Origin: Neisseria sp.
GTDB taxonomy: Bacteria > Pseudomonadota > Gammaproteobacteria > Burkholderiales > Neisseriaceae
DNA: 64,000 bases
Reading direction: 5' to 3'
Assembly: GCA_030538415.1 (NCBI GenBank)
Contig: JAUNTY010000003.1
Location: 20,030 to 84,029 of the forward strand
Shown in pieces: positions 11,275 to 29,810 of the stretch. A model generated the notes under the pieces. The model was not told the origin of the DNA. It saw nothing but the letters and a program-made list of their open reading frames with translations, and made no database searches. Position 1 is the stretch's first letter; every line of letters begins with the position of its first letter. Made by a program: the position numbers and the translations under genes.

Positions 11275-11406
11275 GATTCAAACCGTCAGGATGCTTTATT
11301 GATTTTCAAACAATTTCATTAGAGCAGTTCACCTAATCTTTGTTTTTGATTATGCTGCTTCAACCGCACATCACTCTCTCAAGCTGCGGATAACAAAGGA
11401 GAAATC

Positions 11407-12445: not shown

Positions 12446-12449
12446 GTTT

Positions 12450-12521: not shown

Positions 12522-12577
12522 TAGGCAAACCAAAGGCCGTCTGAAAAGTTTTTCAGACGGCCTTTTTCTATTCCTGA

Positions 12578-14091: not shown

Positions 14092-14107
14092 GCGGTCTTT
14101 GCAGTAA

Positions 14108-14215
14108 TATAGTCGGAGCAATGAGATTCTGATACAAGGCGGCGAGCCGCAGACAGTACAGATAGTACGACAAGGCGAAACAACGCTGTAGCAGAAACTC
14201 ATTTCTTCGACTATA
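14108..14215. repeat. Family A Correia-like element, long form
   Basis: TATAGTCGGAGCAATGAGATTC...GAAACTCATTTCTTCGACTATA, abutting the ubiB start. Confidence 0.8.
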
Positions 14216-14827
14216 AAAAACGCCGCCTGTGCCGCCGATGCCCGATTATCAAAAGCAGCGGCCGCCCGGCGTGCAGCGGTAAAAAAACGGTGGCGGTTGG
14301 GCAGGTCAGTGCCGGAACAGATGATTTGGCAACCCGCCGGGCAAAGCGGCTGCACAGGCAGCTTCCTCCGCCTCGCAACCCGCCTTCCGGCCAACGGCAC
14401 CATGATACCATAGAAACAACCTGTCCCGATTTCATCCGCTCCGGCAAAAGCAGCCGATATCCGCCTGATATGCACACACAGGCAGAGACGTGAGCCTGTC
14501 GGCATTTGCAGCTTTGCATGCCCGCATTTCCCTGTCGCGGCGCCGGCATTTTAATATGCACAATATTTGATATTTCACCCGCTTCCTCTCCGCATCCGTG
14601 ATATACTTTAACAAAAATATAACGAGTGTCTTAATCGGAATGCATGTAAACTATGCACACAACATACAGCCATGCTATAATCCGCCGAAACACGCAAACA
14701 GCGTATAAATTTGATTCATGCAGCAAAGAATATTTTTCAGTCAGAAACCCCGACGAAACGCTTGATTAATAAGGCTTAGCCCTCTACCCTGACAACATCG
14801 GAACCCATCAAGCAGAGGCGGTGCATC

Positions 14828-15667: not shown

Positions 15668-15671
15668 ACAA

Positions 15672-15774
15672 TATAGTCGGAGAGTAAGTTTTAATACAAG
15701 GCGGCGAGCCGCAGACAGTACAGATAGTACGGCAAGCACAGCAACGCCGTAGTAAAACTTACTCTCCGACTATA
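15672..15774. repeat. Family A Correia-like element, long form
   Basis: Starts at the metF stop: TATAGTCGGAGAGTAAGTTTTAATACAAGGCGGCGAGCC...ACTCTCCGACTATA. Confidence 0.8.
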
Positions 15775-15908
15775 CAAGCTTCCTTCTTTTCTTGTTGTAC
15801 CTCAACAGAAAAGCTTCACGGGTCATTTTTATGACCCGTTTTTTTTTGCCCGTTTGGCAAGTCAATTCAGGCCGTCTGAAATTATGTTTCAGACGGCCTG
15901 TTTTTATT

Positions 15909-15980
15909 TATAGTCGAAGAAATGAGTTTTTACTACGGCGTTGGCTCGCCTTGTATCAGAATCTCATTTCTCCGACTATA
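15909..15980. repeat. Family A Correia-like element, short form
   Basis: TATAGTCGAAGAAATGAGTTTTTACTACGGCGTTGGCTCGCCTTGTATCAGAATCTCATTTCTCCGACTATA. Confidence 0.75.
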
Positions 15981-15995
15981 CTTCACCGTTGCCAA

Positions 15996-18176
15996 TCAAA
16001 ACTGCGACTTCGCCACGCGGCGCCAGTGGTGCAGCAGCGGTTCGGTGTAGCCGCTCGGTTGCGCCGTGCCTTTGAATACCAAATCGCAAGCGGCCAAGAA
16101 GGCAGGGGAGCTGTCGAAGCGGCCGACCATCGGGGTGTAGAACGGATCGCCTGCGTTTTGTTGGTCAACCACGCCCGCCATGCGCTCCAGCGTTTCGCGC
16201 ACTTCGGCTTCGCTCACCACGCCGTGCAGCAGCCAGTTGGCGATGTGTTGGCTGGAGATGCGCAGGGTGGCGCGGTCTTCCATCAGGCCGACGTTGTGGA
16301 TGTCGGGCACTTTCGAGCAACCCACGCCCTGCTCTACCCAGCGCACGACGTAGCCGAGGATGCCTTGGCAGTTGTTGTCGAGCTCTTGCTGTTTCTCTTC
16401 CGCGCTCCAGTTGCTATCGGCGGCGACGGGGATGGTGAGCAAGTCGTCGAGATAGGCTTTCGGCTCTTGCGCCAGCAGGTCTTTTTGCACGTCGAACACG
16501 TTCACTTGATGGTAATGCAGCGCGTGCAGGGTTGCGCCGGTCGGCGACGGTACCCACGCGGTGGTCGCGCCGGATTTGGGGTGGCCGATTTTCTGCTTGA
16601 GCATTTCGGCCATCAAATCGGGCATCGCCCACATGCCTTTGCCGATTTGCGCTTTGCCGGGCAGGCCGCATTCCAAGCCGACTTGGACGTTGCTCAACTC
16701 ATACGCCTGAATCCATTTGCTGGCTTTCATGTCGCCTTTGCGGATCATCGCGCCCGCCAGCATGGAGGTGTGCATTTCATCGCCGGTGCGGTCGAGGAAG
16801 CCGGTGTTGATGAACACCACGCGCTCGCGGGCTTCGTAAATACAGGCGGCGAGGTTGACGGAGGTGCGGCGCTCTTCGTCCATGATGCCCATTTTGAGGG
16901 TGTTGGCGGGCAGCTTGGTCAGGGTTTCGATGGCGGCAAACAAGTCGTTGGCGAAACGCACTTCTTCGGGGCCGTGCATTTTCGGTTTCACAATGTAAAC
17001 CGAACCGGCGCGGCTGTTTTTGTTTTCGCTGCGGTTCAAATCAAACGGGGCAATCAAGGCGGTCATCACGCCGTCGAGGATGCCTTCGGGGATTTCGTTG
17101 CCGTTTTGGTCGAGTACGGCGGGCGTGGTCATCAGATGGCCGACGTTGCGGATAAACAAGAGCGAGCGGCCGGGCAGTTTGAATGCGCCGCTGCCGTCGG
17201 GTTGGGTGTATTCGCGGTCGGGGTTGAGGGCGCGGGTGAAGGTTTTGCCGCCTTTTTCCACTTCTTCCGCCAGCGTGCCGTTCATCAGGCCGAGCCAGTT
17301 GGCATACACCAGCGCTTTGTCTTCGCCGTCAACAGCGGTGACGGAATCTTCGCAGTCCATGATGGTGGAGAGCGCGGCTTCGAGAATCACGTCTTTCACG
17401 CCGGCGGGGTCTTGCGCACCGATGGGGCTGTTTTTATCGATCAGGATGTCGATGTGCAGGCCGTTGTGCAGGAACAATAATGAAGTCGGCGCGTCTTCGC
17501 TGCCGTTGTAGCCGACGAACAATTCGGGCGCGGCCAGGCCGCTGCTGCCGCCGTTTTTCAATTGCGCTTTCAGACGGCCTTCTGCCACTTGATAGGCCAC
17601 CACGTCTTTGTGGCTGCCGCTTGCCAGCGGAATGCTGCTGTCGAGCACGTCGCGCGCAAAGGCAATCACGGCATCGCCGCGTACGGGGTTGTAGCCCTTG
17701 CCCGGTGCCAAATCGCCGCTTTGGTCAATCGCATCGGTGCCGTAAAGTGCGTCATACAAACTGCCCCAGCGGGCGTTGGCGGCATTCAAGGCATAGCGGG
17801 CGTTGTTAATCGGCACCACCAATTGCGGCCCGGCTTGTTCGGCCAGCTCGCGGTCGACATTGGCGGTGGCGATTTTGAATTCGAGCGGGCTGTCAACCAG
17901 ATATTCCTGCTCTTTCAGGAAGGTTTTGTAGGCCGCCAAATCGGTCACCGGGCCGGGATTGTTGCGGTGCCACTGGTCGATTTGCAATTGGATGCGGTCG
18001 CGCTTTTCCAGCAAATCGCGGTTGAGCGGGGCGAATTTGTGCACCAAATCGGCGAAGCCCTGCCAGAATTCGGCGGACGAAACCTGCGGATGCTTGGCCA
18101 ATACTTCGTTTTCGACAAATTGGTATAAATGATTGTCCACCTGCAGACCGGCGGCGGGCGTGTAGCTGTATGCCAT
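15996..18176 (-). CDS. glcB: Malate synthase G
   Basis: About 726 aa, collinear with E. coli GlcB ([65 protein letters not shown]). The start is MAYSYT with an AGGAGA Shine-Dalgarno sequence. Confidence 0.9.
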
Positions 18177-18354
18177 CTTGAATTCTCCTGTGCTTTTTTT
18201 CTGATAAGGGCTGATGATTGCAACCAACCTGCCACGAAAATACCACTATTTGTGCGAATAATCCATAGCCCCGCCCCCGGTTTTGCCAAAAAACAGCCGT
18301 CTGAAAAACTTTTGATTAACAAAGTGTTTCAGACGGCTACATTTCAACGAAGAG

Positions 18355-18386
18355 TATAGTCGAAGAAATGAGTTTCTCCGACTATA
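18355..18386. repeat. Family A element reduced to its two inverted repeats (32 bp)
   Basis: TATAGTCGAAGAAATGAGTTTCTCCGACTATA, which is the left and right inverted repeats fused with no core. Confidence 0.6.
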
Positions 18387-18398: not shown

Positions 18399-18476
18399 TG
18401 GGCAGACAAGCAAAGCTGCGCTTTGCACTGGGCACCCGCCTGCGCGGGTGCGACGGTTATTTTTTGCAGAGGTTTC
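18399..18476. repeat. Family B MITE half-copy (reverse orientation)
   Basis: GGGCAGACAAGCAAAGCTGCGCTTTGCACTGGGCACCCGCCTGCGCGGGTGCGACGGTTATTTTTTGCAGAGG. Confidence 0.55.
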
Positions 18477-18544
18477 AAGTTATAGAAAAAGCCGTCTGAA
18501 AGTGGGTTTCAGACGGCCTTTCTATGGCTTATCAGCAAGCAGGT

Positions 18545-19294
18545 TTAAAACTCTTGTCGGGTCGGACGGATGGTGATTTCGTTCACGGCCACGTCTTCCG
18601 GCTGCTCGATGGCATAAGCCACGGCGCGGGCGACGGAATCGGCGGGGATTTCGTAAGCCTGATAAAAGGCTTCCATCGCGGCGGCGGCGTCTTTGTCGCT
18701 GCTGCCGTGTTTCAATTCGCTCTCCACCGCGCCGGGGTAAAGCGTGGTGACGCGGATGTTGTCGCCCGCCACTTCGCCGCGCAAGCCTTCGCTGATGGTT
18801 TTCACGGCGAATTTGGTGGCGCTGTATACCGTGCCCACGCCACCGGATACTTTCAAACCGGCCACCGACGAGAGGTTGATGATGTGGCCGCTTTTTTGCG
18901 CCTGCATGCCGGGCAGGACGGCGGCGATGCCGTAGAGCACGCCTTTGATGTTGACGTCAATCATTTTGTCCCATTCGTCTACGCGGCATTTGGCCATCGG
19001 CGCCATCGGCATGATGCCTGCATTGTTTACCAACACATCGATGCGGCCGAATCGGGCAACAGCTTCGCGGGCCAGGTTTTCCACTTCGGCGTGCGCCGCC
19101 ACATCGGTGGCTACGGCAATGGCTTCGCCGCCCTGCGCCTGAATATCGGCCACCAGCTTTTCCAGGCGGTCGGCGCGGCGGGCGGCCAATACCAATTTGG
19201 CGCCGAAAGCGGCCAGATGGCGGGCGGTGGCTTCACCCAGACCACTGGATGCGCCGGTGATGACCACGACTTTGTTTTGAATATTGTTGCTCAT
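18545..19294 (-). CDS. SDR family NAD(P)-dependent oxidoreductase
   Basis: 249 aa with TGASSGLG Rossmann motif, NNAG, and catalytic S...YxxxK (YSATK). AGGAG Shine-Dalgarno sequence. Confidence 0.85.
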   Translation of the reverse strand: MSNNIQNKVVVITGASSGLGEATARHLAAFGAKLVLAARRADRLEKLVADIQAQGGEAIAVATDVAAHAEVENLAREAVARFGRIDVLVNNAGIMPMAPMAKCRVDEWDKMIDVNIKGVLYGIAAVLPGMQAQKSGHIINLSSVAGLKVSGGVGTVYSATKFAVKTISEGLRGEVAGDNIRVTTLYPGAVESELKHGSSDKDAAAAMEAFYQAYEIPADSVARAVAYAIEQPEDVAVNEITIRPTRQEF

Positions 19295-19411
19295 GTTTTG
19301 CTCCTGTTTGGATTCAGACGGCCTTTGCGATGCAGTTTTTCACTTTCAGGCCGTTGTTTTTTAAAGATTGCCAAGGCCGTCTGCAAGGCTTTCAGACGGC
19401 CTCTGGCTGAA

Positions 19412-20125
19412 TTACTGTGCGTCGTAAGCCTGCTGCACCACGGCGATGCTCGGAATCACCACCGGCCAGCCTGCGTAAAACGCCAAGTGGGTCATCACTT
19501 CGCCCATTTCTTCGCGGGTGATGCCTTGTTGGATGCCGCGCGCCATGTACACGCCGAGGAAATCGCGCAGACCTTGGGCAATCAGGGCGGTAACGCTGAC
19601 GAGGTTGCGGTCGCGCAGGCTCAGGCCGGGGCGCTGCCATACGTGGTGGTAGAGCAAATCGGTGCTGAATGCGGCGAGGCCGGGGGCGAAGGGAGCGATG
19701 TTTTGCCCAATCAAGCCCATGAAGAAATCGTTGTCAGGCAGCGCTTGCGCCAGCGGCAGCAATTCCGGCGCCAATCCGGGCAGCTGGCTTTCGCTGATGC
19801 CGCGTTCGGCGAAGATGTCTTTCAGGATAATCACAGCGTTAAAGGCATTTGACCAGCCGGAATAAAACGCCATGTGCAACACGATTTCCGACATTTCTGC
19901 GGCAGTGACGCCGCTGTCGAGCGCTTTGTTGAAATAATGCGCCATGCCGGCGGTTTGGGCACGGGCAATCAGCGCGGCCACGGTAATCACGCAGCGGTCG
20001 TGGGTGCTCAGGCCTTCGCGCTGCCACAGGTTATTGACGATGGCGCTGCCGGTGAAGGCCGCCAGCGTGGGCGATACGGCGGCCACATCGGCGGGGCTGA
20101 CGGCGGAACGGGTTGGGTTTGACAT
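19412..20125 (-). CDS. Carboxymuconolactone decarboxylase family protein (AhpD-like, two CMD domains)
   Basis: 237 aa with a duplicated core of the form ITVAALIA...G / VSVTALIAQG, characteristic of tandem CMD/AhpD-fold proteins. Confidence 0.7.
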   Translation of the reverse strand: MSNPTRSAVSPADVAAVSPTLAAFTGSAIVNNLWQREGLSTHDRCVITVAALIARAQTAGMAHYFNKALDSGVTAAEMSEIVLHMAFYSGWSNAFNAVIILKDIFAERGISESQLPGLAPELLPLAQALPDNDFFMGLIGQNIAPFAPGLAAFSTDLLYHHVWQRPGLSLRDRNLVSVTALIAQGLRDFLGVYMARGIQQGITREEMGEVMTHLAFYAGWPVVIPSIAVVQQAYDAQ

Positions 20126-20173
20126 GATGTTTCCTTTCCAATGGATATGTGGTTTTCAGACGGCCTGTATTGA

Positions 20174-20281
20174 TATAGTCGAAGAAATGAGATTCTGATA
20201 CAAGGCGGCGAGCCGCAGACAGTACAGATAGTACGACAAGGCGAGCCAACGCCGTAGCAGAAGCTCATTTATTCGACTATA
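20174..20281. repeat. Family A Correia-like element, long form
   Basis: TATAGTCGAAGAAATGAGATTCTGATACAAGGCGGCGAGCCGCAGACAGTACAGATAGTACGACAAGGCGAGCCAACGCCGTAGCAGAAGCTCATTTATTCGACTATA. Confidence 0.8.
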
Positions 20282-20300
20282 AAGGCCGTCTGAACGGGGT

Positions 20301-21332
20301 TTACAGTTTCAATAAACGCTCGGCGTTTTGGTGGGCGATCAGCGCTTTTTCGGCGGCGCTGACGGGCAGGTTTTCCAGCCAGCTTCGCGCCCCGTCTAGG
20401 CTTTGATACGGGTAATCGATCGAATACAGAATGCGTTCGCTACCCATCAATTCGCGGACAAACATAAAATGCGGCAGGGTGAGCATGCCGCTGGGGCTGA
20501 CATACACATGCTCGCGGTAGGTTTGAATCAGGCTGCGGCTAAGCCCGGTGGCGGCTTGCGGCAGGCTGTCGTCGAGGCGTTGCAGGTAAAACGGCAGCAT
20601 TTCGCCCCAATGGCCGCTGATGACTTGCAGATTCGGATGGCGGTCGAAACAGCCCGCCAGCATCATCCGCAGCACATGAATGCCCGCTTCGTTGTGCCAG
20701 CCCCAGCCAAACATGGCCAAGCGCGCATTCACTTCCGCATCGAAACCTGTGTAATACGCCTCGCGCACGGCCTCCACCGGCAAACCGGGATGCACATACA
20801 GCGGCACTTGCCATTCGTCGAATGCGGCCAGCAGCGAATCAAAGCGCGGATGGTCGAGAAAACCGGCATCAGGGCGGCCGTTGATCAATGCGCCTTTGAA
20901 GCCCAATTCTTTCACCGCCCGCTCCAGCTCCCGCACGGCGGCTTCAGGGTCTTGCCACGGCAAAGTGGCAAAGGCGGCGAAGCGGCCGGGATGTTGGGCG
21001 GCGGCTTCGGCCATCGCATCGTTGGCGGCGCGGTGCAGCGCGGCGGCGGCGGGCATGGCGGCCATTTGCGGCACACCGCCCACCGACAACACCTGCATGT
21101 CGATACCGGCGTCGTCCATCTGCTTCAGACGGCCTGCACCGATGTCCTGCAAAAGCCGCATCGACTCCTGCGCGGCAATCACATGCGGGCGGCTGTGGTC
21201 GGCCACGTCTGCGCCGTCGGTGACGCGGCTGCCCCAGTCGCGCAGATACGGCGCGGCAGCAGCAGTGGCCGCCATGCCCGCCTGCGCCAGCGCGGGATAG
21301 AGCATGTGCTCTTCGAGGGTGATGATTTTCAT
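20301..21332 (-). CDS. Amidohydrolase-2 family protein (ACMSD-like metal-dependent decarboxylase/hydrolase)
   Basis: The start is set at MKIITLEEHM with an AAGGA Shine-Dalgarno sequence. The protein has a TIM-barrel amidohydrolase_2 pattern. The 52 codons upstream in the track ORF are read-through of family C MITE sequence. Confidence 0.7.
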   Translation of the reverse strand: MKIITLEEHMLYPALAQAGMAATAAAAPYLRDWGSRVTDGADVADHSRPHVIAAQESMRLLQDIGAGRLKQMDDAGIDMQVLSVGGVPQMAAMPAAAALHRAANDAMAEAAAQHPGRFAAFATLPWQDPEAAVRELERAVKELGFKGALINGRPDAGFLDHPRFDSLLAAFDEWQVPLYVHPGLPVEAVREAYYTGFDAEVNARLAMFGWGWHNEAGIHVLRMMLAGCFDRHPNLQVISGHWGEMLPFYLQRLDDSLPQAATGLSRSLIQTYREHVYVSPSGMLTLPHFMFVRELMGSERILYSIDYPYQSLDGARSWLENLPVSAAEKALIAHQNAERLLKL

Positions 21333-21354
21333 GTGGTTTTCCTTTGACGGCTTA

Positions 21355-21514
21355 GGGCTTTCTGATACTTCGTTTATGAGGGGATTTTTGTTCCTGAAAA
21401 TGCAGATGCAAGGCAAAAAACGTAGCAAGATTGGACATCTTGCGAGGCTTTTTAACGCAGCAGATGCGTTTTCAGGGACAAAAAGCACCCGTAAATCGAA
21501 GTGTCAGGAAGCCC
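21355..21514. repeat. Family C MITE (~160 bp) with about 18-bp inverted repeats GGGCTTTCTGATACTTCG / CGAAGTGTCAGGAAGCCC
   Basis: A second copy, about 90% identical, lies at 61048..61215. An internal inverted repeat CCTGAAAATGCAGATGCAAGG / CGCAGCAGATGCGTTTTCAGG is also present. Confidence 0.7.
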
Positions 21515-21610
21515 TAGCGTGAAGCTTGCCCAGATAAGGCAAAAGCATCAATGCCAAACCGCTTTTCAATACTGCACGCCGGTTCATGCGCTTGGTTCAA
21601 GCCGCCGGGC

Positions 21611-22297
21611 TTATTTCTGCAAGGCTTCGCGCAATGCCACGCCCAGGCTGGCGGCCGATTGCGGGTTTTGGCCGGTAATCAGGCGGCCGTCAACCTGCAC
21701 TTCGTCATGCCAGTTGGCGGCGGCATGGTGGCGTGCGCCGCGCTCGACCAGTGTGGAAGCCAGCAAAAACGGCACCACATTAGTAGACTGCACTTCTTCC
21801 TCTTCCGCATCGGTAAACGCGGCCACGTCTTTACCGGCAACCAGCAAACTGCCGTCTGAAAGGCGGGCATTCACCAGCGCAGCGGGGCCGTGACACACGG
21901 CGGAAACAATGCCGCCTGCTTCGTAAATCGAGCAGATGGCGTTTTGCGCGGCGGCGTTGTCGGGGAAATCCCACATGGTGCCGTGGCCGCCTGCGAAGAA
22001 AATCGCGGCGTAGCGGGCGGGATCGATGTCGTCGATTTTGAGGGTGTTTTCAATGGCGTGGCGGAAATCGGCATCGGCCCAGTAATGTTTGTTGGCCGGG
22101 TCGTCCATGTCTTCGAGGCCGTCGAGCGGAGCCGCGCCGCCTTTGATGGAGGCGAACTCCACTTTGATGCCTGCTTCGTGCAGCTTTTCCAGCGGGTGGG
22201 TGACTTCGGCCAGATTGAAGCCGGTGGGGATGCCGGTGTCGCCTTTGACAGCCTGGCTGGTGACAACGAATAAAACGGGTTTGTCGGCGTTGCTCAT
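21611..22297 (-). CDS. DJ-1/PfpI family (type 1 glutamine amidotransferase-like) protein
   Basis: 228 aa. The nucleophile-elbow cysteine is in AVCHGPAAL, and FFAGGHG precedes it, as in DJ-1/PfpI/Hsp31-class proteins. Confidence 0.75.
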   Translation of the reverse strand: MSNADKPVLFVVTSQAVKGDTGIPTGFNLAEVTHPLEKLHEAGIKVEFASIKGGAAPLDGLEDMDDPANKHYWADADFRHAIENTLKIDDIDPARYAAIFFAGGHGTMWDFPDNAAAQNAICSIYEAGGIVSAVCHGPAALVNARLSDGSLLVAGKDVAAFTDAEEEEVQSTNVVPFLLASTLVERGARHHAAANWHDEVQVDGRLITGQNPQSAASLGVALREALQK

Positions 22298-22485
22298 GGT
22301 TTGCTCCTGTTGTGTGGGTTGATGGGTGCAGTATAGGGAGAAAGCATGACGGCTGATAGACAGGTGAAAGTGTATAGATTATTTCCTTTTTGGAAATAAT
22401 AAGCATGTCTATGTGTCATCTAAAAGGCCGTCTGAAAACCTTTTCAGACGGCCTTTGATGGATAAGCCTGCTTTTTTGAAAAATA

Positions 22486-23535
22486 TTACAAAGCGGCAAT
22501 CAGCCTGTCTACCGCAGCCTCTTCGGTCGCCCACGAGGTAATCAGGCGCACGGCGGCGTGGTCGGCGTCGGTTTCCTGCCACACGTAAAAGCTGAAATCG
22601 GCTTGCAGTTTTTCAATCACGGCATAAGGCAGAATCGGGAACACCTGATTGGTGGTGGATTCTGTCAGCATGGCGTAGCCTTTTGATTTAACCGCCGCCA
22701 CGATTTTGGCGGCCATCCGGTTTGCATGACGGGCAAGCTCGAAGTAGAGGCCGTCTGAAAACAATTCGTAATACTGGATGCCGAGCAGGCGGCCTTTGGA
22801 GAGCAGCGCGCCGTTTTGTTTGACAATGTAGTCGAAATCGGTTTGCAGCGCGGGGTTGACGATGACCATTGCTTCGCCGAGCAGGCCGCCGTTTTTGGTG
22901 GCACCGATATAAAACGCATCGGCCAGGCGGGCGATGTCGGCGAGGGTGGCGTCGTTGTCGGCGGCGGTGAGCGCGCTGCCGAGGCGCGCGCCGTCGATAT
23001 AGAGCAGCAAATCGTGTGCGCGGCAATATTGTGCGATGGCTTCCAGCTCGGCCAGATGATAAATCGAACCGATTTCGGTGGATTGGGAGAGATAGACCAG
23101 CCGCGGTTTGACCATATGCGGCGCGAGTTCGTGCGCTTTCAGCACGGCGGCGATGTCGGCCACGTCGAGTTTGCCGTCGGCGCTTGCGACTTCAATCACT
23201 TTATGGCCGCTGGCTTCAATCGCACCGGCTTCGTGGGTGGCAATGTGGCCGCTGGCGGCGGCGATGACGGCTTCGTGCGGGCGCAGAAAAGCGGTGGTGG
23301 CGAGACGGTTGGTTTGGGTGCCGCCGCTGAGAAAATGGATGGCGGCATCATCGTTGCCAACCAGCTTTTTCAGCAGGCTTTTTGCTTCACAGCTGTAGAA
23401 ATCTTCGCCGTAGCCTTCGTGTTGCTCCAGATTGCTGCTGAGCAGGCGGTTGAGAATATTGGGGTGCGCGCCTTCGGCGTAGTCGTTTTTGAAGCTGTAC
23501 ATGATGTTTTCGGCAAGATAATTTGAAACCATCAA
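22486..23535 (-). CDS. Low-specificity L-threonine aldolase / beta-eliminating lyase family PLP enzyme
   Basis: 349 aa with a PLP fold-type I pattern (LSGGTQTN, lysine in IGATKNGG). The start is ambiguous between three ATGs at the 5' end. Confidence 0.65.
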   Translation of the reverse strand: MMVSNYLAENIMYSFKNDYAEGAHPNILNRLLSSNLEQHEGYGEDFYSCEAKSLLKKLVGNDDAAIHFLSGGTQTNRLATTAFLRPHEAVIAAASGHIATHEAGAIEASGHKVIEVASADGKLDVADIAAVLKAHELAPHMVKPRLVYLSQSTEIGSIYHLAELEAIAQYCRAHDLLLYIDGARLGSALTAADNDATLADIARLADAFYIGATKNGGLLGEAMVIVNPALQTDFDYIVKQNGALLSKGRLLGIQYYELFSDGLYFELARHANRMAAKIVAAVKSKGYAMLTESTTNQVFPILPYAVIEKLQADFSFYVWQETDADHAAVRLITSWATEEAAVDRLIAAL

Positions 23536-23666
23536 TATAAGGCCGGAACAATGCTTTTAAAGGCCGTCTGAATATTCAAACCGCCCTTGTTTTGCATCGC
23601 CGGTGTCTGCATGCGGATAAAGCCGCGCCTGCCAGCCATTTTGCCCAATGTGCCATACCGCCTCCG

Positions 23667-24233
23667 TCAGACCGATTGATGAATTTGCGCCATCAGCCGC
23701 TCGGCATGCAGGCGCGCCCTGTTTTGCACATCGGCCAAATCGGCCTCGCTGCTCACGCCGGGCACATACATGATGCCGGTCGAACACACCGGCTGCTGCC
23801 AATCCATGCCGCATTGCACCGCGCTTTGCTGCAGCGGCGGCAAAAAGGCTTCCAGCGGATGGTTCATGGCACCGCCATAGCGGTATTGTTCGGCGGGCGC
23901 GCCGGCGGTCAGCGATACAGTCAGCTTTTTGCCCTTGAGCGCGGTGCCGCCGCTGCCGTAGGCAAAACCGTGCAGATACACTTCGTCTAAATAGGCTTTC
24001 ATCAGCGCGGGCAGCGCATACCAGTGCAGCGGAAACTGCCACACCACCACATCGGCGGCCACCAAAGCGGCCTGCTCGGCGGCCACGTCGATTTTGCGGT
24101 TTGCATACAATTCGTCGAGGCGGCGGATTTCGGCCGCATCGCCCAACCCTTGCTGCAAGGTGTCGAGAATCACCCGGTTGGCGGTGGATTGCTGCAAATC
24201 GGGGTGGCCGGAAATAACGAGGATTTTGCTCAT
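23667..24233 (-). CDS. NAD(P)H-dependent FMN oxidoreductase with a flavodoxin-like fold (NQO/KefF/MdaB-like)
   Basis: 188 aa. MSKILVISGHPDLQQS and WQFPLHWY are typical of the flavodoxin_2/NAD(P)H dehydrogenase (quinone) family. Confidence 0.75.
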   Translation of the reverse strand: MSKILVISGHPDLQQSTANRVILDTLQQGLGDAAEIRRLDELYANRKIDVAAEQAALVAADVVVWQFPLHWYALPALMKAYLDEVYLHGFAYGSGGTALKGKKLTVSLTAGAPAEQYRYGGAMNHPLEAFLPPLQQSAVQCGMDWQQPVCSTGIMYVPGVSSEADLADVQNRARLHAERLMAQIHQSV

Positions 24234-24379
24234 GATGGGGCTTTCTGGAAATAATTGAATGTCAACAGGCGCAGTATAGGCGTTTGGATTGATGGGTTTA
24301 AGACAGCTGCCGGTAGAAAGACCATTTCCGCACAGGAAGCAATCAGGCCGTCTGAAAACGCTTTCAGACGGCCTCTGCT

Positions 24380-24872
24380 TTATTCGGGCAGGCCTTCCAC
24401 AATGTAAGTGCGCGAATTGCCGGCGCGGTGGCGGATGGGGATGATTTTGCGGTATTCGGGCGAGTTGTACCAGGCTTGCGCTTGGGCGAGGCTGTCGAAC
24501 TTGATCATCACCAGCCGCCCCTGCGCGCCGAAGCCTTCTTTCACGTCGGCTTCGCCGCCGCGCACGATGTATAGTCGGAGAAATTAAGTTTTAATACAAG
24601 GCGGCGAGCCGCAGACAGTACAGGCAGTACGACAAGGCGAGCCAACGCCGTAGTAAAGCTTAATTTCTCCGACTATAGCGGCCGCTATACGGGCGGAAGG
24701 TATCTTCCACTTCGGCGCTGTAAGGGCGGATGGCCTCGCGGTCGGTGGCTTCGAATTCGGCCACATAATAAGCGGGGCTTGCCTTGGCTGCACCGGCGGG
24801 CGCGGCATGGGCGGCCAGCGGCAGGGCGGCTGCGGCCACTGCGGCGAAGGCAGACAAAAACAGTTTGGTCAT
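24380..24872 (-). pseudogene. DUF1330 family secreted protein gene disrupted by insertion of a 108-bp family A MITE
   Basis: The N-terminal piece (24660..24872: MTKLFLSAFAAVAAAALPLAAHA...PAYYVAEFEATDREAIRPYSGRY) and the C-terminal piece (24380..24565: ...RLVMIKFDSLAQAQAWYNSPEYRKI...) are in different frames and are separated by the element at 24570..24677. Deleting the element and keeping one TA restores a continuous DUF1330 ORF (…GRYIVRGGEADV…). Confidence 0.75.
24570..24677. repeat. Family A Correia-like element, long form, inserted at a TA inside the DUF1330 gene
   Basis: TATAGTCGGAGAAATTAAGTTTTAATACAAGGCGGCGAGCCGCAGACAGTACAGGCAGTACGACAAGGCGAGCCAACGCCGTAGTAAAGCTTAATTTCTCCGACTATA. Confidence 0.85.
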
Positions 24873-24878
24873 TTCAGA

Positions 24879-25304
24879 CTACTCCTTTATTTTATGGAAA
24901 ATCAGCGGCAGGGATTCGGCATCCAGGCTTTGCATGTCGGTCAGCTGCAGCGATTTCACCATGTGCGCGGTGCCGGTTTTGTAGTGCTGGAAGTGCGGCG
25001 ATCGGATATGGGCGTCATAGGCGGCCTGGTCAGCATAAATTTCCAGCAGGCGGATTTGGGCGGGCGCGTTTTGCTCGGCCATCGGCACAATCGCCAGCAC
25101 GCCCGGCTCGATTCTCATCGAAGCCGCCGCCTCTTCTTTCAGCATGGCATAATATTCGGCGCGGTATTGTGGGAAAATTTCGATTTCGGCCATGCGCATC
25201 ATCATTTTACCGCTGCCGTTTTCAGGTTCGCCCGCCTTGTCGTGGGCAAAAACCGGCAGCGCCGCCAAAGCCAGCGCCAGCAGCAATCCTGCTTTTTTCA
25301 ACAT
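24879..25304 (-). CDS. Secreted antibiotic-biosynthesis-monooxygenase (ABM) domain protein
   Basis: 141 aa with signal peptide MLKKAGLLLALALAALPVFA and a ferredoxin-like ABM pattern (IEIF...EYY...HF..Y). Confidence 0.6.
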   Translation of the reverse strand: MLKKAGLLLALALAALPVFAHDKAGEPENGSGKMMMRMAEIEIFPQYRAEYYAMLKEEAAASMRIEPGVLAIVPMAEQNAPAQIRLLEIYADQAAYDAHIRSPHFQHYKTGTAHMVKSLQLTDMQSLDAESLPLIFHKIKE

Positions 25305-25333
25305 AGTCCGCTCCTGTCTGTAAAATCACAAAA

Positions 25334-25441
25334 TATAGTCGAATAAATGAGCTTCTGCTACGGCGTTGGCTCGCCTTGCCGTACTATCTGTACTGTCTGC
25401 GGCTCGCCGCCTTGTATCAGAAGCTCATTTCTCCGACTATA
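25334..25441. repeat. Family A Correia-like element, long form (reverse orientation)
   Basis: TATAGTCGAATAAATGAGCTTCTGCTACGGCGTTGGCTCGCCTTGCCGTACTATCTGTACTGTCTGCGGCTCGCCGCCTTGTATCAGAAGCTCATTTCTCCGACTATA. Confidence 0.8.
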
Positions 25442-25530
25442 TTTGGGAAACGGTATAAATATAAACTGGTTTGCGCCTTATTTTTAGCCTATGATGGGTG
25501 CAAAGATATTTTCCCGAAAGGAACGAATCC

Positions 25531-26430
25531 ATGCACAGCGCCATCTACGGCCAACTGACCGTATTTCACACCATCGCCGCGCAAGGCAGCATTTCCGGCG
25601 CGGCGCGCCAGCTCGAAATCGGCGCGCCTGCGGTGAGCAAATCGCTGAAGCTTTTGGAAGAACACATCGGCCTGCCGCTGTTTAACCGCACCACGCGCAA
25701 GCTGGAGCTGACCGAAGCGGGCGCGTTGCTGCTGGCGCGAACGGGCGAGGCGGTGCAGTCGCTGCAATATGCGGTGGAGAGCGTGCAGGATTTGGGCGAC
25801 ACGCCGCACGGCAGCGTGCGCATCACCGTGGCGCGGTTTGCCTACAAATGCATCCTGAAGCCGCTGCTGGCCGAATTCTGCCGCCAGTATCCCGAAATCC
25901 GGCTGGAAGTGTCGGTGTTTGACGGCACGGTCGATATTCTCGAACAAGGCTTCGATTTGGGCATCCGCTTCGGCGACCGCGTGGAAGAAGGCATGGTGGC
26001 GCGCCAACTGATGGCGCCGTTTAAAGAGGGCTTGTATGTGTCGCAGGCTTATCGCGACCAATACGGCCTGCCCGAAAGCCCCGCTGACCTGCCCGCACAC
26101 CGGCTCATCGGCTACCGCCTGATTACCGCCAACCGCATCCTGCCGCTGACGCTCGACAACCACGGCCAAGCGCTGGAAGTGGACATGCCCTGCCCGATAT
26201 TGGTCAACGACATCGGCGTGATGGCCGACGCGGTGCGCCAGGGTATCGGCATCGGCCGCCTGTTTGAACCGGTGGTGCAGCAATACGCCGACCGCGCCGA
26301 TTTTGTCCCGGTGTTGGCGGATTATTGGCAAAGCTATCCCGGCGTGTATCTCTATTACCTGCAAAACAGCCAGAAAGCCAAGCGCATCAGGGTGTTGATT
26401 GATTTCTTGCTGGCGCATCACGGCGGCTGA
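25531..26430 (+). CDS. LysR family transcriptional regulator
   Basis: N-terminal helix-turn-helix (LTVFHTIAAQGSISGAARQLEIGAPAVSKSLKLLEEHIG) and a C-terminal LysR substrate-binding domain. The start is set at MHSAIYG with an AAGGA Shine-Dalgarno sequence. Confidence 0.88.
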   Translation: MHSAIYGQLTVFHTIAAQGSISGAARQLEIGAPAVSKSLKLLEEHIGLPLFNRTTRKLELTEAGALLLARTGEAVQSLQYAVESVQDLGDTPHGSVRITVARFAYKCILKPLLAEFCRQYPEIRLEVSVFDGTVDILEQGFDLGIRFGDRVEEGMVARQLMAPFKEGLYVSQAYRDQYGLPESPADLPAHRLIGYRLITANRILPLTLDNHGQALEVDMPCPILVNDIGVMADAVRQGIGIGRLFEPVVQQYADRADFVPVLADYWQSYPGVYLYYLQNSQKAKRIRVLIDFLLAHHGG

Positions 26431-26593
26431 ACATGCTCCGCCTAGCCCATGCCTTTTCGGCATACCTTTTACTGCATCGCAAAAGCATCAGGCCGTCTGA
26501 AAGGTTTCAGACGGCCTGATGTGATTGTGCAGCCAAACAATAGCAATCACACAAGACGAAGGCAGCGCCGCAGGATTCCATATTATCCGGCGA

Positions 26594-27610
26594 TCAATAT
26601 TTCATTCCCCGCAGCATCCCCTGAATCGCATTGCGGCGCAGCTCGCGGTATTGCGCGGTTTGCGGCGAGTCGGGGCCAAGCATCTCGAAAGCGTGAAACA
26701 CGCCCGGTATCACGTGCAGCTCGGTGGGCACGCCGGCCTGAATCAGGCGGTTGGCATAATCGATGTCTTCGTTGACAAACAAATCCAGGTCGCCCACGGC
26801 AATAAAGGTTGGCGGCAGGCCGCTCAGGTCTTTGGCCAGCGCGGGTGAAAAATACGCCATCTGCCGCTCGGAAATGCGTTGGCCGCCGCGCAGTTTGCCC
26901 CAGCCGAAGCGGTTGGAAGCCGCCGTCCACACAAATTCACCGGCATACGGGTTGCGGTAAGGCGATTGGGCGGTGCCGGTGCGGTAATCGAGCATCGGAT
27001 AAATCAACACCTGCCCCGCCGGGCTGAATTCGCCCCGGTCGCGGGTGTAGAGCGCCAGCCGCGCCGCCAGCCCGCCGCCCGCGCTCTCGCCCATCAGAAT
27101 GATGCGTTTGTTGTCGAGCTCCAACGCATCGGCGTGGCGGAACACATGGCCGAGGCCGTGGTAGGCATCGTTCAAATCGGCGGGAAACGGCGCTTCGGTG
27201 GCCAGCCGGTATTCCACGCTCACCACCGCCGCCCGGTTACGTTCGGCCAAATCGGCCAGCGCGGCGTTATTCTGGCGTGCATTGCCCATGATGTAGCCGC
27301 CACCGTGAATAAAATAAATCACCGGCAGGCTGCCCGTTGCATTTTTGGGGCGGTAAAGATACAAATCCACCGCCGGTTGGCGCGCCGCCGCAGGTACGGT
27401 GATTTTCAGGTCGGGTTGCGGCGCGGCTTCGGCAGCCTGCCTGAAACCCGCCTCTCGCCGCGCCACTTCGGCATCATCGGCAATGCTGGCCGCCCAATTC
27501 GGCGCTATGCTTTGGTATTCGGGCGCCAAACGGTGCAGGGTTTTGAAATCCTGTGCGGCAACAGGCAGGCTGCACAATGCAATGGCAACGGAAAGCATCA
27601 GTTTGTTCAT
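26594..27610 (-). CDS. Secreted alpha/beta hydrolase (esterase/lipase, hormone-sensitive-lipase-like fold-3)
   Basis: Signal peptide, HGGG oxyanion motif (FIHGGGY) and nucleophile elbow GESAGG. GAGGAG Shine-Dalgarno sequence. Confidence 0.8.
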   Translation of the reverse strand: MNKLMLSVAIALCSLPVAAQDFKTLHRLAPEYQSIAPNWAASIADDAEVARREAGFRQAAEAAPQPDLKITVPAAARQPAVDLYLYRPKNATGSLPVIYFIHGGGYIMGNARQNNAALADLAERNRAAVVSVEYRLATEAPFPADLNDAYHGLGHVFRHADALELDNKRIILMGESAGGGLAARLALYTRDRGEFSPAGQVLIYPMLDYRTGTAQSPYRNPYAGEFVWTAASNRFGWGKLRGGQRISERQMAYFSPALAKDLSGLPPTFIAVGDLDLFVNEDIDYANRLIQAGVPTELHVIPGVFHAFEMLGPDSPQTAQYRELRRNAIQGMLRGMKY

Positions 27611-27811
27611 CACGGCTCCTCAGGGTTGCCATATACTTTTCTTTATACACAAAATCCGCCTGCAAATAAACAGGCCGCTGCAAGCCCGATTGCTGTTCAG
27701 ACGACCACAAGCTTTCTTGTCAGGAAATGATACTATTCCGCCTTCCCCGTTTATTGCTGCCACGCTCCGGCCTATACTGGACACCGTCAGCTTATCCACA
27801 AAGGAAACACC

Positions 27812-28525
27812 ATGATCGAACGCCGCCCTTTTGCCGAACTCGGCGCCGCCAACCACGGCTGGCTTGATGCCAAACACCATTTCTCATTCGCCGAATATTA
27901 CGACCCCGAGCGCATGCACTGGGGCAACCTGCGCGTGTGGAACGACGACACCATCGCCGCAGGCCAGGGCTTTCCGCCGCATCCGCATGCCGATATGGAA
28001 ATCATCACTTATGTGCGCGAAGGCGCGATTTCGCACCAAGACAGCCTTGGCAATAAAGGACGCACCGTAGCAGGCGACGTGCAAGTGATGAGCGCGGGCA
28101 CAGGCATCCGCCATTCCGAATACAACCTTGAAAATGAAACCACGCGCATTTTCCAAATCTGGATTCTGCCCGAGCGCCGCGGCGATGCGCCTGCCTGGGG
28201 CACCAAACCGTTTCCGAAAAGTGACCGCACGGGGCAATTCGTGATACTGGCCAGCGGCCTCGACGCCGACCTGGCCGATGGCAGCGCCCTGCCCATCCGC
28301 ACCGATGCACGCGTGGCCGGTGCCACCCTCAAAGCCGGTGAAACGCTGCAATACCGCTTTGCCGATGCCAGCCGCTACGGCTATCTCGTGCCTGCCCAAG
28401 GCGAAGTAGAAGTCAACGGCGTAGCGCTGGCCGAACGCGACGGCGCCGCCATCCACGGCGAAACCCTGCTCAGCATCACCGCCAAAAGCGATGCGGAATT
28501 AGTATTGGTCGACAGCGCGGGCTGA
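27812..28525 (+). CDS. Pirin family protein (YhhW-like, bicupin)
   Basis: 237 aa. GFPPHPHADMEIITYVREG carries the N-terminal cupin metal-binding histidines. Confidence 0.85.
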   Translation: MIERRPFAELGAANHGWLDAKHHFSFAEYYDPERMHWGNLRVWNDDTIAAGQGFPPHPHADMEIITYVREGAISHQDSLGNKGRTVAGDVQVMSAGTGIRHSEYNLENETTRIFQIWILPERRGDAPAWGTKPFPKSDRTGQFVILASGLDADLADGSALPIRTDARVAGATLKAGETLQYRFADASRYGYLVPAQGEVEVNGVALAERDGAAIHGETLLSITAKSDAELVLVDSAG

Positions 28526-28561
28526 CAAGCCTGCTGCAGTCAAACAACATAAAACCGCTAT

Positions 28562-28605
28562 AAAAGGCCGTCTGAACGCATCGGTGCGTTCAGACGGCCT
28601 TTTAT
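28562..28605. terminator. Inverted DUS pair terminator
   Basis: AAAAGGCCGTCTGAACGCATCGGTGCGTTCAGACGGCCTTTT just downstream of the pirin stop. Confidence 0.7.
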
Positions 28606-28693
28606 ATAGAACGTGAATTCGGGATAAGCGTTTAAGATATTCTTATTATTTTCAGAAATTTACGCATCCCCACAGACAGAAAATCGCCAGATT

Positions 28694-28792
28694 TTCGTCA
28701 TTCCCGCGCAGGCGGGAATCCAGAAGCCTGACATTTCCGTAATGTTTTCAAGGTTTCTGAAACTCGACGACTGGATTCCCGCCTGCGCGGGA
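28694..28792. repeat. Neisserial intergenic mosaic element bounded by two dRS3 repeats (ATTCCCN8GGGAAT)
   Basis: ATTCCCGCGCAGGCGGGAAT at about 28694 and ATTCCCGCCTGCGCGGGAAT at about 28773, in inverted orientation, flank about 60 bp. Confidence 0.7.
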
Positions 28793-28883
28793 ATGACGAA
28801 TCCTTGCGGATTCTGCCTACCTCAAGGAGAAATACATTTCTGAAAATCAAAAGATATTTCATTTGCTTATCCCGAACTCACGT

Positions 28884-28989
28884 TATAGAGGGAAAACTTA
28901 CTCTAATACAAGGCAGCAAGCCGCAGACAGTACAGATAGTACGGCCAGGCGCAGCAACGTCGTGGTAGGAATTAAGTTTTCCCTCTATA
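28884..28989. repeat. Family A-type element with variant inverted repeats TATAGAGGGAAAAC...GTTTTCCCTCTATA
   Basis: The core CAAGGCAGCAAGCCGCAGACAGTACAGATAGTACGGCCAGGCGCAGCAACG is shared with family A. The inverted repeats differ. Confidence 0.7.
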
Positions 28990-29017
28990 GGGGTTTCAGA
29001 CGGCAGCCCCCCCGAAA

Positions 29018-29089
29018 TATAGTTGGAGAAATGAATTTCTGATACAAGGCGAGCCAACGCCATAGCAGAAACTCATTTCTCCGACTATA
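29018..29089. repeat. Family A element, short form
   Basis: TATAGTTGGAGAAATGAATTTCTGATACAAGGCGAGCCAACGCCATAGCAGAAACTCATTTCTCCGACTATA. Confidence 0.7.
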
Positions 29090-29192
29090 TCGGCTCGGGC
29101 ATGGCGGTAAGCAAACAATTGCGCTAAAGTGTGAATTCCTTCCAAACATGTAGAATGAATACCGGCAAACCGGCAACACAGGCACTCTCAGC

Positions 29193-29810
29193 ATGCAGAT
29201 TTTCTGGTCTTGGCTCAACCATATGGCAGATGCCGCCCTTTTTGCGGGCGCATCCGGCATGTTGCTGTTTGGCGCGGTGTTTTTCGTGTTGAGCCTATTG
29301 TGCGTACCGGTCACGCCGCTGATGGCGGCGGCGGGCTTTCTGTTCGGCCCCTTTTGGGGCAGCCTGACCGTGATGGCCGCCAGCGCCCTGTCGGCATGGA
29401 GCGCGTTTGCCCTCGGCCGCACCGCTTTTTACGTGCGCGTGCGCCGCTGGCTGCTGCGCCACCCCCTGCTGGCCACAGTGGAGCGGGCTTTGTCGGCGCA
29501 GGGCTGGCGCACGGTGTTTTTACTGCGTCTCTCGTCCATGATACCGTTTGCCCCGCTCAGCTACGCCCTCGGTGCCGCCAAAGTCAAAACCCGCACCTTC
29601 CTCAGCGCCACCCTGCTTGGCGAATTGCCGTGGGCGCTGCTCTACGGTTATCTGGGCAGCCTGCTCAACGACCTCAGCCAGCTTGCAGACGGCCACAGCC
29701 TCACCGCCAGCCTGCCGCCCTACGCCTATGCCCTGATGGTGGGCGTGATGATACTGGCCGTGCTCTTGCTCAGCCGCACCGCCCGCGCCGCGCTGGGCAG
29801 ACAGCAATGA
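29193..29810 (+). CDS. TVP38/TMEM64 (DedA-related, VTT domain) family inner-membrane protein
   Basis: 205-aa polytopic protein with the conserved FL.RL..PFA..SYA.G core of the DedA/TVP38 superfamily. Confidence 0.65.
   Translation: MQIFWSWLNHMADAALFAGASGMLLFGAVFFVLSLLCVPVTPLMAAAGFLFGPFWGSLTVMAASALSAWSAFALGRTAFYVRVRRWLLRHPLLATVERALSAQGWRTVFLLRLSSMIPFAPLSYALGAAKVKTRTFLSATLLGELPWALLYGYLGSLLNDLSQLADGHSLTASLPPYAYALMVGVMILAVLLLSRTARAALGRQQ

Follow-up and report, generated by a model that had tools for sequence, protein, structure and literature searches.

In a 64-kb window of Neisseria sp. DNA (64,000 nucleotides of contig JAUNTY010000003.1; "the window" below means this whole stretch), a single gene for a LysR-type transcriptional regulator, lysR, lies within a cluster of about 10 kb (18545-28525) that also encodes a Flavodoxin_2 quinone reductase-like protein, ABM, DUF1330, DJ-1/PfpI, Amidohydro_2, CMD, SDR and pirin proteins. 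We propose that this region is probably a local regulon of that one LysR, consisting of four operator-bearing units whose products would handle quinones or phenolic compounds. Comparison with other genomes establishes the gene families and their synteny, the sequence and geometry of the candidate operators, the repeats inserted among the genes, and the horizontal sharing of the cluster with distant bacteria. From the enzyme families we infer that quinone or phenolic electrophiles are handled; the role in quinone and electrophile stress that a first-pass annotation of the window had suggested is best treated as conjecture.

The model we favour is as follows. Elsewhere the design is a lysR gene divergent from a single operon drawn from a recurring enzyme toolbox: a Flavodoxin_2 reductase, the small barrel proteins ABM and DUF1330, a tandem CMD protein, an SDR, DJ-1 and Amidohydro_2. 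In the window this toolbox is split into separate units, each with one copy of the candidate operator: ABM-DUF1330; Flavodoxin_2 (perhaps with a threonine-aldolase-like gene); DJ-1-Amidohydro_2-CMD-SDR; and pirin. LysR would occupy the four dyads. Through site 1, which falls within the lysR leader and covers part of its Shine-Dalgarno region, it would repress its own gene; with a quinone or phenolic ligand bound, it would activate the four promoters. The products might then carry out the two-electron reduction of quinones, the re-oxidation or modification of quinols, and the handling of hydroxy-aromatic acids and reactive carbonyls. Inverted pairs of DNA uptake sequences (DUS) would terminate the units, and later insertions of Correia-like MITEs (miniature transposable elements with inverted repeats) and of a second element of ~170 bp would probably lower or uncouple expression. 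Binding of LysR to the dyads, the direction of regulation, the inducer and the substrates of the enzymes are all predictions from sequence.

Geometry of a predicted operator at four promoters

Six orthologous lysR intergenic regions can be aligned without gaps, and the alignment contains three elements at fixed spacing: the -10 of the divergent operon (TATACT), an invariant TAG within TCTA/CTAA near -35, and a T-N11-A dyad. The TCTA element lies ~21 nt upstream of the -10 and is conserved in 13 aligned promoters. In the window, dyad 1 (TTCCTTTCGGGAA on the target strand, T-N11-A; 25511-25523, centre 25517, minus strand) lies upstream of ABM and DUF1330 and aligns gap-free with five orthologous intergenic regions; its centre is 54 nt upstream of the -10 TATATT (25463-25458), and it falls within the lysR leader, 8 nt before the ATG. 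The first-pass annotation had named 25442-25530 and 26431-26593 as places to search for a LysR box: the former holds dyad 1, while the latter is without a dyad and contains only an inverted DUS pair.

Three further dyads share this geometry. Dyad 2 (TTCCTGTGCGGAA; 24326-24338, centre 24332, minus strand), recognised by a match to the composite motif described below and by promoter alignment, stands upstream of Flavodoxin_2, with its centre 54 nt upstream of TATACT (24278-24273), and Uruburuella testudinis has a counterpart upstream of its own Flavodoxin_2 gene (centre 9422 of the examined stretch). Dyad 3, a perfect palindrome (ATTATTTCC-AAAAA-GGAAATAAT; 22378-22400, centre 22389, minus strand), stands upstream of DJ-1, again centred 54 nt upstream of TATACT (22335-22330), and is kept upstream of DJ-1 with identical spacing in the Pasteurellaceae genome USgator11. 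Dyad 4 (TTCTTGTCAGGAA, one mismatch; 27714-27726, centre 27720, plus strand), also a composite-motif match, stands upstream of pirin and is centred 53 nt upstream of TATACT (27773-27778); in related metagenome-assembled genomes (MAGs) the homologous pirin promoter retains a dyad, TTCTCATCAAGAA (TTCT/AGAA), at the identical 53-nt offset.

A position weight matrix trained on five lysR intergenic sites from outside the window gave its two top matches in the 64 kb at 22378-22400 (28.5 bits) and 25506-25528 (24.5 bits); in 60 simulated sequences used as a control the maximum was 15.4 +/- 2.1, and the highest value 21.0. A composite pattern (TTCC-N5-GGAA with at most one mismatch, centred 53-55 nt upstream of TATA[CTA][TC]) has four matches in the window, compared with 0.1 expected by chance, and all four are within the cluster; none occurs in the window's other 54 kb. 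All four are correctly oriented, with a start codon 35-100 nt downstream, or ~155 nt in the case of ABM, where the distance is longer because a MITE has been inserted. A generic scan for sigma-70 promoters and terminators added little beyond a hybrid -35/-10 at the end of that MITE and the DUS hairpins.

The same geometry occurs in USgator11 upstream of Flavodoxin_2, AKR-Flavodoxin_2 and DJ-1, in U. testudinis before Flavodoxin_2 and AKR, and in a JGI contig before Flavodoxin_2; the lysR-proximal site of U. testudinis, at DUF1330, is more degenerate, and its spacing aligns equally. If the -10 has its usual position relative to the start of transcription, the dyads are centred near -66, and the vicinity of -66 is the classical position of the LysR recognition site (PMC2724274). 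Half-sites vary by clade: TTCC/GGAA, TTAAG/GCTAA and TAGC/GCTA. For a widespread group of LysR proteins, the analysis predicts a regulon and a concrete operator (TTCC-N5-GGAA, 54 nt upstream of TATACT).

Partners of the regulator and competing explanations

In every genome or contig examined individually, the LysR orthologue is divergent from an operon that carries a Flavodoxin_2 reductase and variable partners: Flavodoxin_2-ABM in Pasteurella testudinis, DUF1330-Flavodoxin_2-ABM-Flavodoxin_2-AKR in U. testudinis, Flavodoxin_2-SDR in the JGI contig, a small open reading frame followed by Flavodoxin_2-AKR-CMD in Klebsiella, and Flavodoxin_2-ABM-DUF1330 in USgator11. A scan of metagenome contigs added 80 LysR loci, 63 of which had at least 2.5 kb upstream and were used for operon counts; many of these 63 are near-duplicates, so that the counts are not independent, and they represent 22 distinct non-empty architectures. 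Flavodoxin_2 was present in the divergent operon of 52/63 loci, followed by CMD (29/63), ABM (27/63), SDR (17/63), DJ-1 (12/63), Amidohydro_2 (7/63) and DUF1330 (6/63), and in several loci DJ-1, Amidohydro_2, Flavodoxin_2, ABM and CMD all belong to one operon. The pattern places several common proteins (DUF1330, tandem CMD, the highly conserved 343-aa Amidohydro_2 and the Hsp31-class DJ-1) with a quinone reductase under a single regulator.

Pirin, the esterase and the threonine-aldolase-like gene were each found in 0/63 of these divergent operons. The first-pass annotation had associated the LysR with all of the enzymes of the cluster, and this is supported for the families that recur with the regulator and for the four units that share the operator; the esterase and the threonine-aldolase-like gene, both without an upstream operator, have no such support. 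For pirin the proposed membership stands in part: an operator precedes it, and it is otherwise a backbone gene.

The association of enzymes also exists without this regulator. In Pseudomonas syringae CP159362.1 (5220-10424 of the examined stretch) a LysR with 32% identity faces an operon for FMN_red, a YCII/MIase-like protein of 99 aa, DJ-1, Amidohydro_2, a secreted cupin and CMD, and its DJ-1 and Amidohydro_2 are 74.5% and 67% identical to the proteins of the window; by sequence, this locus represents the same enzyme association under a different regulator. Most of these loci encode a small protein of the alpha+beta-barrel kind, be it ABM, DUF1330 or YCII-like.

The alternative that survives best, though we consider it unlikely, is that the genes serve to break down or process plant polyphenols (flavonols, hydroxybenzoates) and are not a set for stress detoxification: pirin would act as a quercetinase, the esterase would split a depside, Amidohydro_2 would decarboxylate a polyhydroxybenzoate, the SDR, quinone reductase, ABM and CMD proteins would act on phenolics, and LysR would sense the substrate. 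LysR regulators commonly control aromatic catabolism; the pirin is of the YhhW type, a solved homologue of which is named quercetin 2,3-dioxygenase; Amidohydro_2 is nearest to decarboxylases of the hydroxybenzoate type, and CMD is PcaC-like; the esterase adjoins pirin and is divergent from it; and the nearest relatives come from reptile-associated bacteria. However, the cluster encodes no ring-cleavage dioxygenase besides pirin, no transporter, and no downstream path to central metabolism. Pirin and the esterase never accompany LysR orthologues in the 63 loci and stand in a different relative order in related MAGs, the most constant partner is the quinone reductase (52/63), and the free variation of the toolbox is what one would sooner expect of a detoxification set than of a pathway. 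A broader form of the idea, namely that the LysR group, spread by horizontal transfer through Neisseriaceae, Pasteurellaceae, Enterobacterales and further Proteobacteria, defines a conserved regulon for dietary polyphenols and quinones, of which the window holds a complete flavonol route assembled by operon fission and operator duplication in a reptile-associated commensal, we regard as distinctly improbable.

We also give little credence to the possibility that the dyad serves another, unlinked transcription factor, or is a promoter element of the lineage, and that LysR controls only its divergent neighbour or nothing here. Several observations that lean towards it also weigh against a regulon of one LysR. 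The pirin dyad persists in MAGs that have no LysR within 10 kb, and pirin shows no association with LysR orthologues in the 63 loci, so that pirin may be under a different regulator. The recognition-helix region hardly varies among LysR orthologues while the half-sites do, and the inner bases of the dyad may therefore not be the main contacts. In USgator11 a second LysR lies directly upstream of the DJ-1 unit. Three other points count against the regulon we propose: the composite pattern was defined after the sites of the window had been viewed, so that those of Flavodoxin_2 and pirin are only in part independent discoveries; electrophile sensing by a thiol switch in LysR is unsupported, as no cysteine is invariant in the orthologue group; and the inserted hairpins may leave parts of the regulon non-functional in this genome. 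Against an unlinked factor stand the dyads themselves: most orthologous loci examined, drawn from several families, carry a dyad of the T-N11-A type between the divergent operon and the lysR orthologue, at the classical distance of the recognition site (~15/80 metagenome loci had no match of this type), and the pattern is missing from the rest of the window. Moreover, the second LysR of USgator11 is only 15 bp from a divergent GST-OsmC operon, which is more likely to be its target.

Chance aggregation of unrelated housekeeping oxidoreductases without common control, with which a base composition equal to that of the flanks, a DUS hairpin of its own at the end of each unit and the uninformative generic promoter scan would agree, is already disfavoured and hardly credible, given that these families are found again alongside this regulator in many taxa, that the operator is shared in identical geometry, that the four-gene unit is 82-84% identical in nucleotides across bacterial classes, and that the protein clusters are rare.

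The regulator, its enzymes and related systems

The regulator (25531-26430, plus strand; 299 aa) carries HTH_1 (residues 8-64 of the 299-aa product, or 19-75 of the 310-aa open reading frame; E = 1.2e-19) and LysR_substrate (E = 1.6e-26) domains in Pfam, and is encoded by the sole LysR gene found in the window by tblastn. Its start is the ATG at 25531 rather than GTG 25498: alignments with orthologues begin at residue 11 or 12 of the longer form, and the 299-aa protein exactly matches a protein of a 'Neisseria sp.' MAG while the 310-aa form has no exact match. PF00126 and PF03466, together with a predicted T-N11-A site around -65 and another element around -35, give it the sequence features of its family. 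A scan of genome contigs with a pattern from the GTG-start protein missed U. testudinis and so gives no ground for concluding that the gene is absent from Neisseria.

Orthologues among the best 120 matches have 57-73% identity and 386-472 bits. They come from metagenomes, Testudinibacter, Pasteurellaceae USgator11, P. testudinis, Chelonobacter, Actinobacillus, Mannheimia and Aggregatibacter, and from U. testudinis, Klebsiella, Serratia, Dickeya and some alpha-proteobacteria; across Pasteurellaceae, Klebsiella, U. testudinis and the 80 metagenome loci the range is 52-73%. The nearest named relatives of LysR, DJ-1 and Amidohydro_2 are almost all reptile-associated taxa (Testudinibacter, Pasteurella testudinis, Uruburuella testudinis, Chelonobacter oris and USgator11), which hints at gene sharing inside a host-linked community. 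No cysteine is invariant among the orthologues compared, so that ligand binding in the effector pocket is likelier than a thiol switch. Literature searches aimed at this orthologue group or its regulon found no characterised member.

All 11 domain calls of the first-pass annotation were borne out by Pfam, as were, by Pfam and repeat analysis, the split DUF1330 gene and four repeat insertions. Several of the families fit the proposed chemistry: a reductase of the KefF/YwrO/NQO type, ABM, an Amidohydro_2 resembling hydroxybenzoate decarboxylases, an Hsp31-class DJ-1 and a YhhW-type pirin. The Flavodoxin_2 protein (23667-24233, minus strand; 188 aa) is NAD(P)H:quinone oxidoreductase-like and KefF/YwrO-like, scoring 169.6 bits against NCBIfam KefF (under the cut-off of 210) and matching general stress protein 14, KefF, NQO1/NQO2 and MdaB (the last with E = 1.5e-10) in the PDB. 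The ABM protein (24879-25304, minus strand) is a single domain of 141 aa that begins with a signal-peptide-like sequence and may be periplasmic; its counterparts in USgator11 and U. testudinis are longer, tandem-domain proteins. Signal-peptide-like N-termini are also found in the DUF1330 fragment at 24660-24872 and in the esterase; one example among these three proteins is MLKKAGLLLALALAALPVFA|HD.

In the DJ-1 unit, all on the minus strand, DJ-1/PfpI (21611-22297) is of the Hsp31 class, with PDB matches to 4p5p and 1u9c (glyoxalase III) and the reactive Cys-His motif VCHGP. The Amidohydro_2 enzyme (20301-21335; 343 aa) matches 3nur, 4inf, 3s4t, 2dvt and 6m53 in the PDB and is nearest to 5-carboxyvanillate, gamma-resorcylate, 2,3-dihydroxybenzoate and salicylate decarboxylases; its sequence assigns it to the hydroxybenzoate (de)carboxylase branch, LigW / gamma-resorcylate decarboxylase-like. 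The tandem CMD protein (19412-20125; 237 aa, with two CMD stretches and a PDB match to 4g9q) had been called AhpD-like, a label that does not fit: it has a single Cys and no CxxC motif and is therefore PcaC-like rather than a peroxidase of the AhpD type, and its best named matches are PcaC-type decarboxylases. The SDR oxidoreductase (18545-19294) is the final gene.

Pirin (27812-28525, plus strand), with Pirin and Pirin_C_2 domains, is a YhhW-type bicupin, quercetin 2,3-dioxygenase-like, matching PDB 6uts/1tq5 at ~195 bits as compared with 77 bits for YhaK (28% identity); an exact-sequence database look-up returned no match. The esterase (26594-27610, minus strand) is an Abhydrolase_3 protein. 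The threonine-aldolase-family enzyme (22486-23532, minus strand; Beta_elim_lyase, pyridoxal phosphate-dependent, PDB 1svv, E = 8e-103) may share a transcript with Flavodoxin_2. In a second, independent assembly made from the same run, the aldolase gene also adjoins Flavodoxin_2, and 22430-24373 and 25415-26515 are reproduced at 100% identity.

The closest described parallel is CrgA-MdaB of N. meningitidis, in which CrgA activates mdaB, the divergently placed gene for a quinone reductase, and acts as its own repressor via T-N11-A sites (PMC2724274). The first-pass annotation had called the cluster not a described Neisseria module, which in view of this simpler analogue is too strong; from its sequence, the cluster is a horizontally shared, larger relative of the described Neisseria design. 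Both systems have a LysR from one broad clade (among solved structures, the window protein is matched best by CrgA, 3hhg), a flavodoxin-fold quinone reductase on the divergent side, and intergenic T-N11-A sites, one of which overlaps the promoter or leader of the regulator, and autorepression with inducer-dependent activation is proposed for each. The window LysR is nevertheless not the CrgA orthologue, scoring 111.6 bits over its full length compared with 386-472 bits for true orthologues. Its reductase is KefF/YwrO-like and not MdaB, and is not directly divergent from lysR, since ABM and DUF1330 lie between them and the reductase has an operator of its own; the predicted regulon has four promoters and eight or nine genes as opposed to one target gene, and each promoter has one dyad and a TCTA element where CrgA has two adjacent 30-bp sites.

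Other systems resemble parts of the cluster. The YcaN-YcaK pair of E. coli K-12 also has a LysR (YcaN, 32% identity over the full length) divergent from a Flavodoxin_2 oxidoreductase, but it is a two-gene pair, its YcaK is 26% identical to the window reductase, and it lacks ABM, DUF1330, DJ-1, CMD and Amidohydro_2. Adams and Jia are said to have described in 2005 a quinone redox cycle in E. coli, MdaB-YgiN, with a flavodoxin-fold reductase beside a quinol monooxygenase of the ABM family. Here and in 27/63 orthologous loci a flavodoxin-fold quinone reductase is likewise paired with an ABM-family protein; the subfamilies differ, and ABM in the window has one domain only and begins with a signal-peptide-like sequence. 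The YhaJ-YhaK pair of E. coli (a LysR and a pirin) was ruled out as the same system, as YhaJ matches the HTH region only (36 bits) and the pirin of the window is YhhW-type. In P. aeruginosa, GloR is a glyoxal-sensing LysR with a conserved Cys191 and the targets arqI-gloA2 (bioRxiv 10.64898/2026.09.20.752901). It shares with our proposal the features of an electrophile-sensing LysR that drives a small regulon through a palindromic T-N11-A box, but the glo box is TAATT-N7-AATTA as opposed to TTCC-N5-GGAA and the targets are different; with a different box and no invariant Cys here, GloR was set aside as the same system. The cluster is accordingly a well-supported instance of the familiar design of a regulator plus enzymes, and does not overturn current understanding.

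Inserted repeats, gene transfer and genomic setting

Three Correia-like MITEs lie in the cluster: at 20173-20288, between Amidohydro_2 and CMD and missing from the corresponding spacer of USgator11; at 24570-24677, inside DUF1330 and with a TA target duplication; and at 25333-25442, in the 5' untranslated region of ABM, between the predicted -10 and the start codon. The sequence indicates that DUF1330 (24380-24872, minus strand; two Pfam DUF1330 fragments, 24380-24565 and 24660-24872) was inactivated by the second of these insertions: excision of 106 nt (24572-24677), leaving one TA, restores an intact open reading frame of 128 aa that is very similar to that of U. testudinis. The third begins ~9 nt downstream of the predicted start of the ABM transcript, is 97% complementary to the copy at 20173-20281, folds into a hairpin of -53.6 kcal/mol (z = -9.9), and is missing from all orthologous intergenic regions compared; hairpins of this family in the cluster range from -46 to -54 kcal/mol. 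The end of this MITE supplies TATAGT 18 nt downstream of a flanking TTTATA (25465-25436, minus strand), a hybrid sigma-70-like promoter from which transcription would run into the MITE and ABM without need of the LysR-dependent -10.

These elements have the size and target duplication of Correia elements, at 106 bp plus a TA duplication, with long inverted arms. Their termini, TATAGTCG[A/G]AGAAATGAG, are not the canonical TATAGTGGATTA, and their core is common to a canonical-type copy (TATAGTGGATTA...) in a related MAG, so that they are taken as a variant family. Correia repeat enclosed elements (PMC2649163) are alike in length (106-110 bp), TA duplication, long hairpin, core, and insertion in intergenic or 5' untranslated regions; the window variant differs in the terminal ~20 bp. 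Correia elements can give rise to promoters, can be bound by IHF and are open to cleavage by RNase III (PMC2649163), and by analogy the inserted repeats probably modulate or weaken expression. The terminus has 25 occurrences in the window (~14 elements in 64 kb), and with 3 elements in the 10-kb cluster an enrichment of MITEs there was ruled out. Short forms of 72 bp that consist of the termini only are present at 12450-12521, 15909-15980 and 29018-29089, and a 32-bp hairpin of two terminal repeats at 18355-18386; their sequences suggest that the short forms are internal deletion variants.

The first-pass annotation had placed a further MITE at 21355. An element is indeed there, and it belongs to a different, second MITE-like family: an inverted-repeat element of ~170 bp (21350-21520), between DJ-1 and Amidohydro_2. 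It is a near-perfect palindrome (-73.6 kcal/mol, z = -10) with a central terminator-like hairpin and T-run that can be read on both strands, and it is missing from the DJ-1/Amidohydro_2 spacer of USgator11. Copies with ~84-92% identity occur at 61013-61200 of the window, in U. testudinis and in Pasteurella testudinis; in the examined stretches of other genomes the copies lie at 457-623 (L001), 5942-6122 (L017, U. testudinis) and 8606-8771 (L021). Its termini are GCTTAGGGCTTTCTGA..., and the element is common to two bacterial classes. Rfam found no RNA family in the cluster region and none for this element. Taken together, the repeats do not separate the genes, as had been supposed, but are insertions in one 5' untranslated region, one coding sequence and two intra-operon spacers, all missing from homologous loci. 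They illustrate how MITEs can erode a regulon: by insertion in a 5' untranslated region, by gene disruption and by hairpins within an operon.

Uptake sequences are of the AG type of Neisseria, with 110 copies of GCCGTCTGAA in the window, 94 of them AGGCCGTCTGAA. Inverted pairs stand downstream of SDR (18491-18519), aldolase (22425-22454, a terminator-like hairpin), DUF1330 (24345-24374, a hairpin of two AGGCCGTCTGAA that is likely an attenuator or terminator), lysR, and pirin (28559-28606). The cluster is bounded by intergenic mosaic repeats typical of Neisseria: dRS3/NIME-like inverted repeats (ATTCCCGCGCAGGCGGGAAT) at 28694-28800, in the spacer between pirin and VTT, and a degenerate dRS3/NIME-like copy at 18428-18455, between glcB and SDR.

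Proteins of the window match a MAG that is labelled 'Neisseria sp.', and the host is nearest to Uruburuella testudinis, a species whose transfer to Neisseria has been proposed (bioRxiv 10.1101/2023.02.24.529859). Synteny with U. testudinis covers the right flank (29.9-40.8 kb) at 74-93% DNA identity, mostly 82-89%, and breaks at the rluB 3' end. USgator11 (VDGZ01000038.1) has the DJ-1-Amidohydro_2-CMD-SDR unit with identical order, sizes and operator, at 82-84% nucleotide and 85-93% amino acid identity (DJ-1 93%, Amidohydro_2 87%), and its spacers are without both of the repeats inserted in the window unit; the 90% cluster of DJ-1 also contains Testudinibacter. The USgator11 contig carries the Pasteurellaceae (Haemophilus-type) uptake sequence AAGTGCGGT in 10 copies in 11 kb and 13 in 20.7 kb, and also 11 Neisseria DUS (GCCGTCTGAA, mostly of the AG dialect; 4825-18205 of the examined stretch) in the 20.7 kb around the DJ-1 unit. 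Neisseria DUS in a Pasteurellaceae contig point to import from a Neisseriaceae donor, and thus suggest that the USgator11 block came from Neisseriaceae. Several of these DUS form inverted pairs after genes, and the contig has a few Kingella-type copies (GCAGCCTGAA) as well. Such findings speak for a recent passage of genes between Neisseriaceae and Pasteurellaceae with reptile hosts in common, and uptake sequences serve as a tracer of its direction.

GC (0.56-0.63) and GC at third codon positions (GC3; 0.70-0.79) in the cluster show no anomaly and are like those of the flanks, so that the cluster is no recent foreign arrival in this genome. No integrase-like domain turned up in the Pfam scan of the listed genes, and the only tRNAs of the window are at 58.5 kb; as regards the marks of a genomic island, composition and borders do not set the region apart, and its distribution is patchy with close copies in distant taxa. 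A search for plasmid carriage matched only 11 large replicons, at no more than 60% identity and all non-mobilizable, and gave no evidence of spread by plasmids. The genes are not conserved core genes of Neisseria: clusters at 90% identity are rare, and most contain this MAG alone, or this MAG and reptile-associated Pasteurellaceae.

Pirin, the esterase and VTT adjoin in related MAGs, in which no LysR was found within the 10 kb examined on either side, and they are therefore viewed as backbone genes beside the LysR units. Their order is esterase, pirin, VTT in the window (26594-29810) and pirin, esterase, VTT in a related MAG (L022, 10001-12585), with orientations kept. Pirin and its promoter (27695-28521) behave as a cassette of 830 bp with repeats on its flanks in each genome: the related MAG has a canonical-type Correia copy there, and the window has dRS3-like and MITE repeats.

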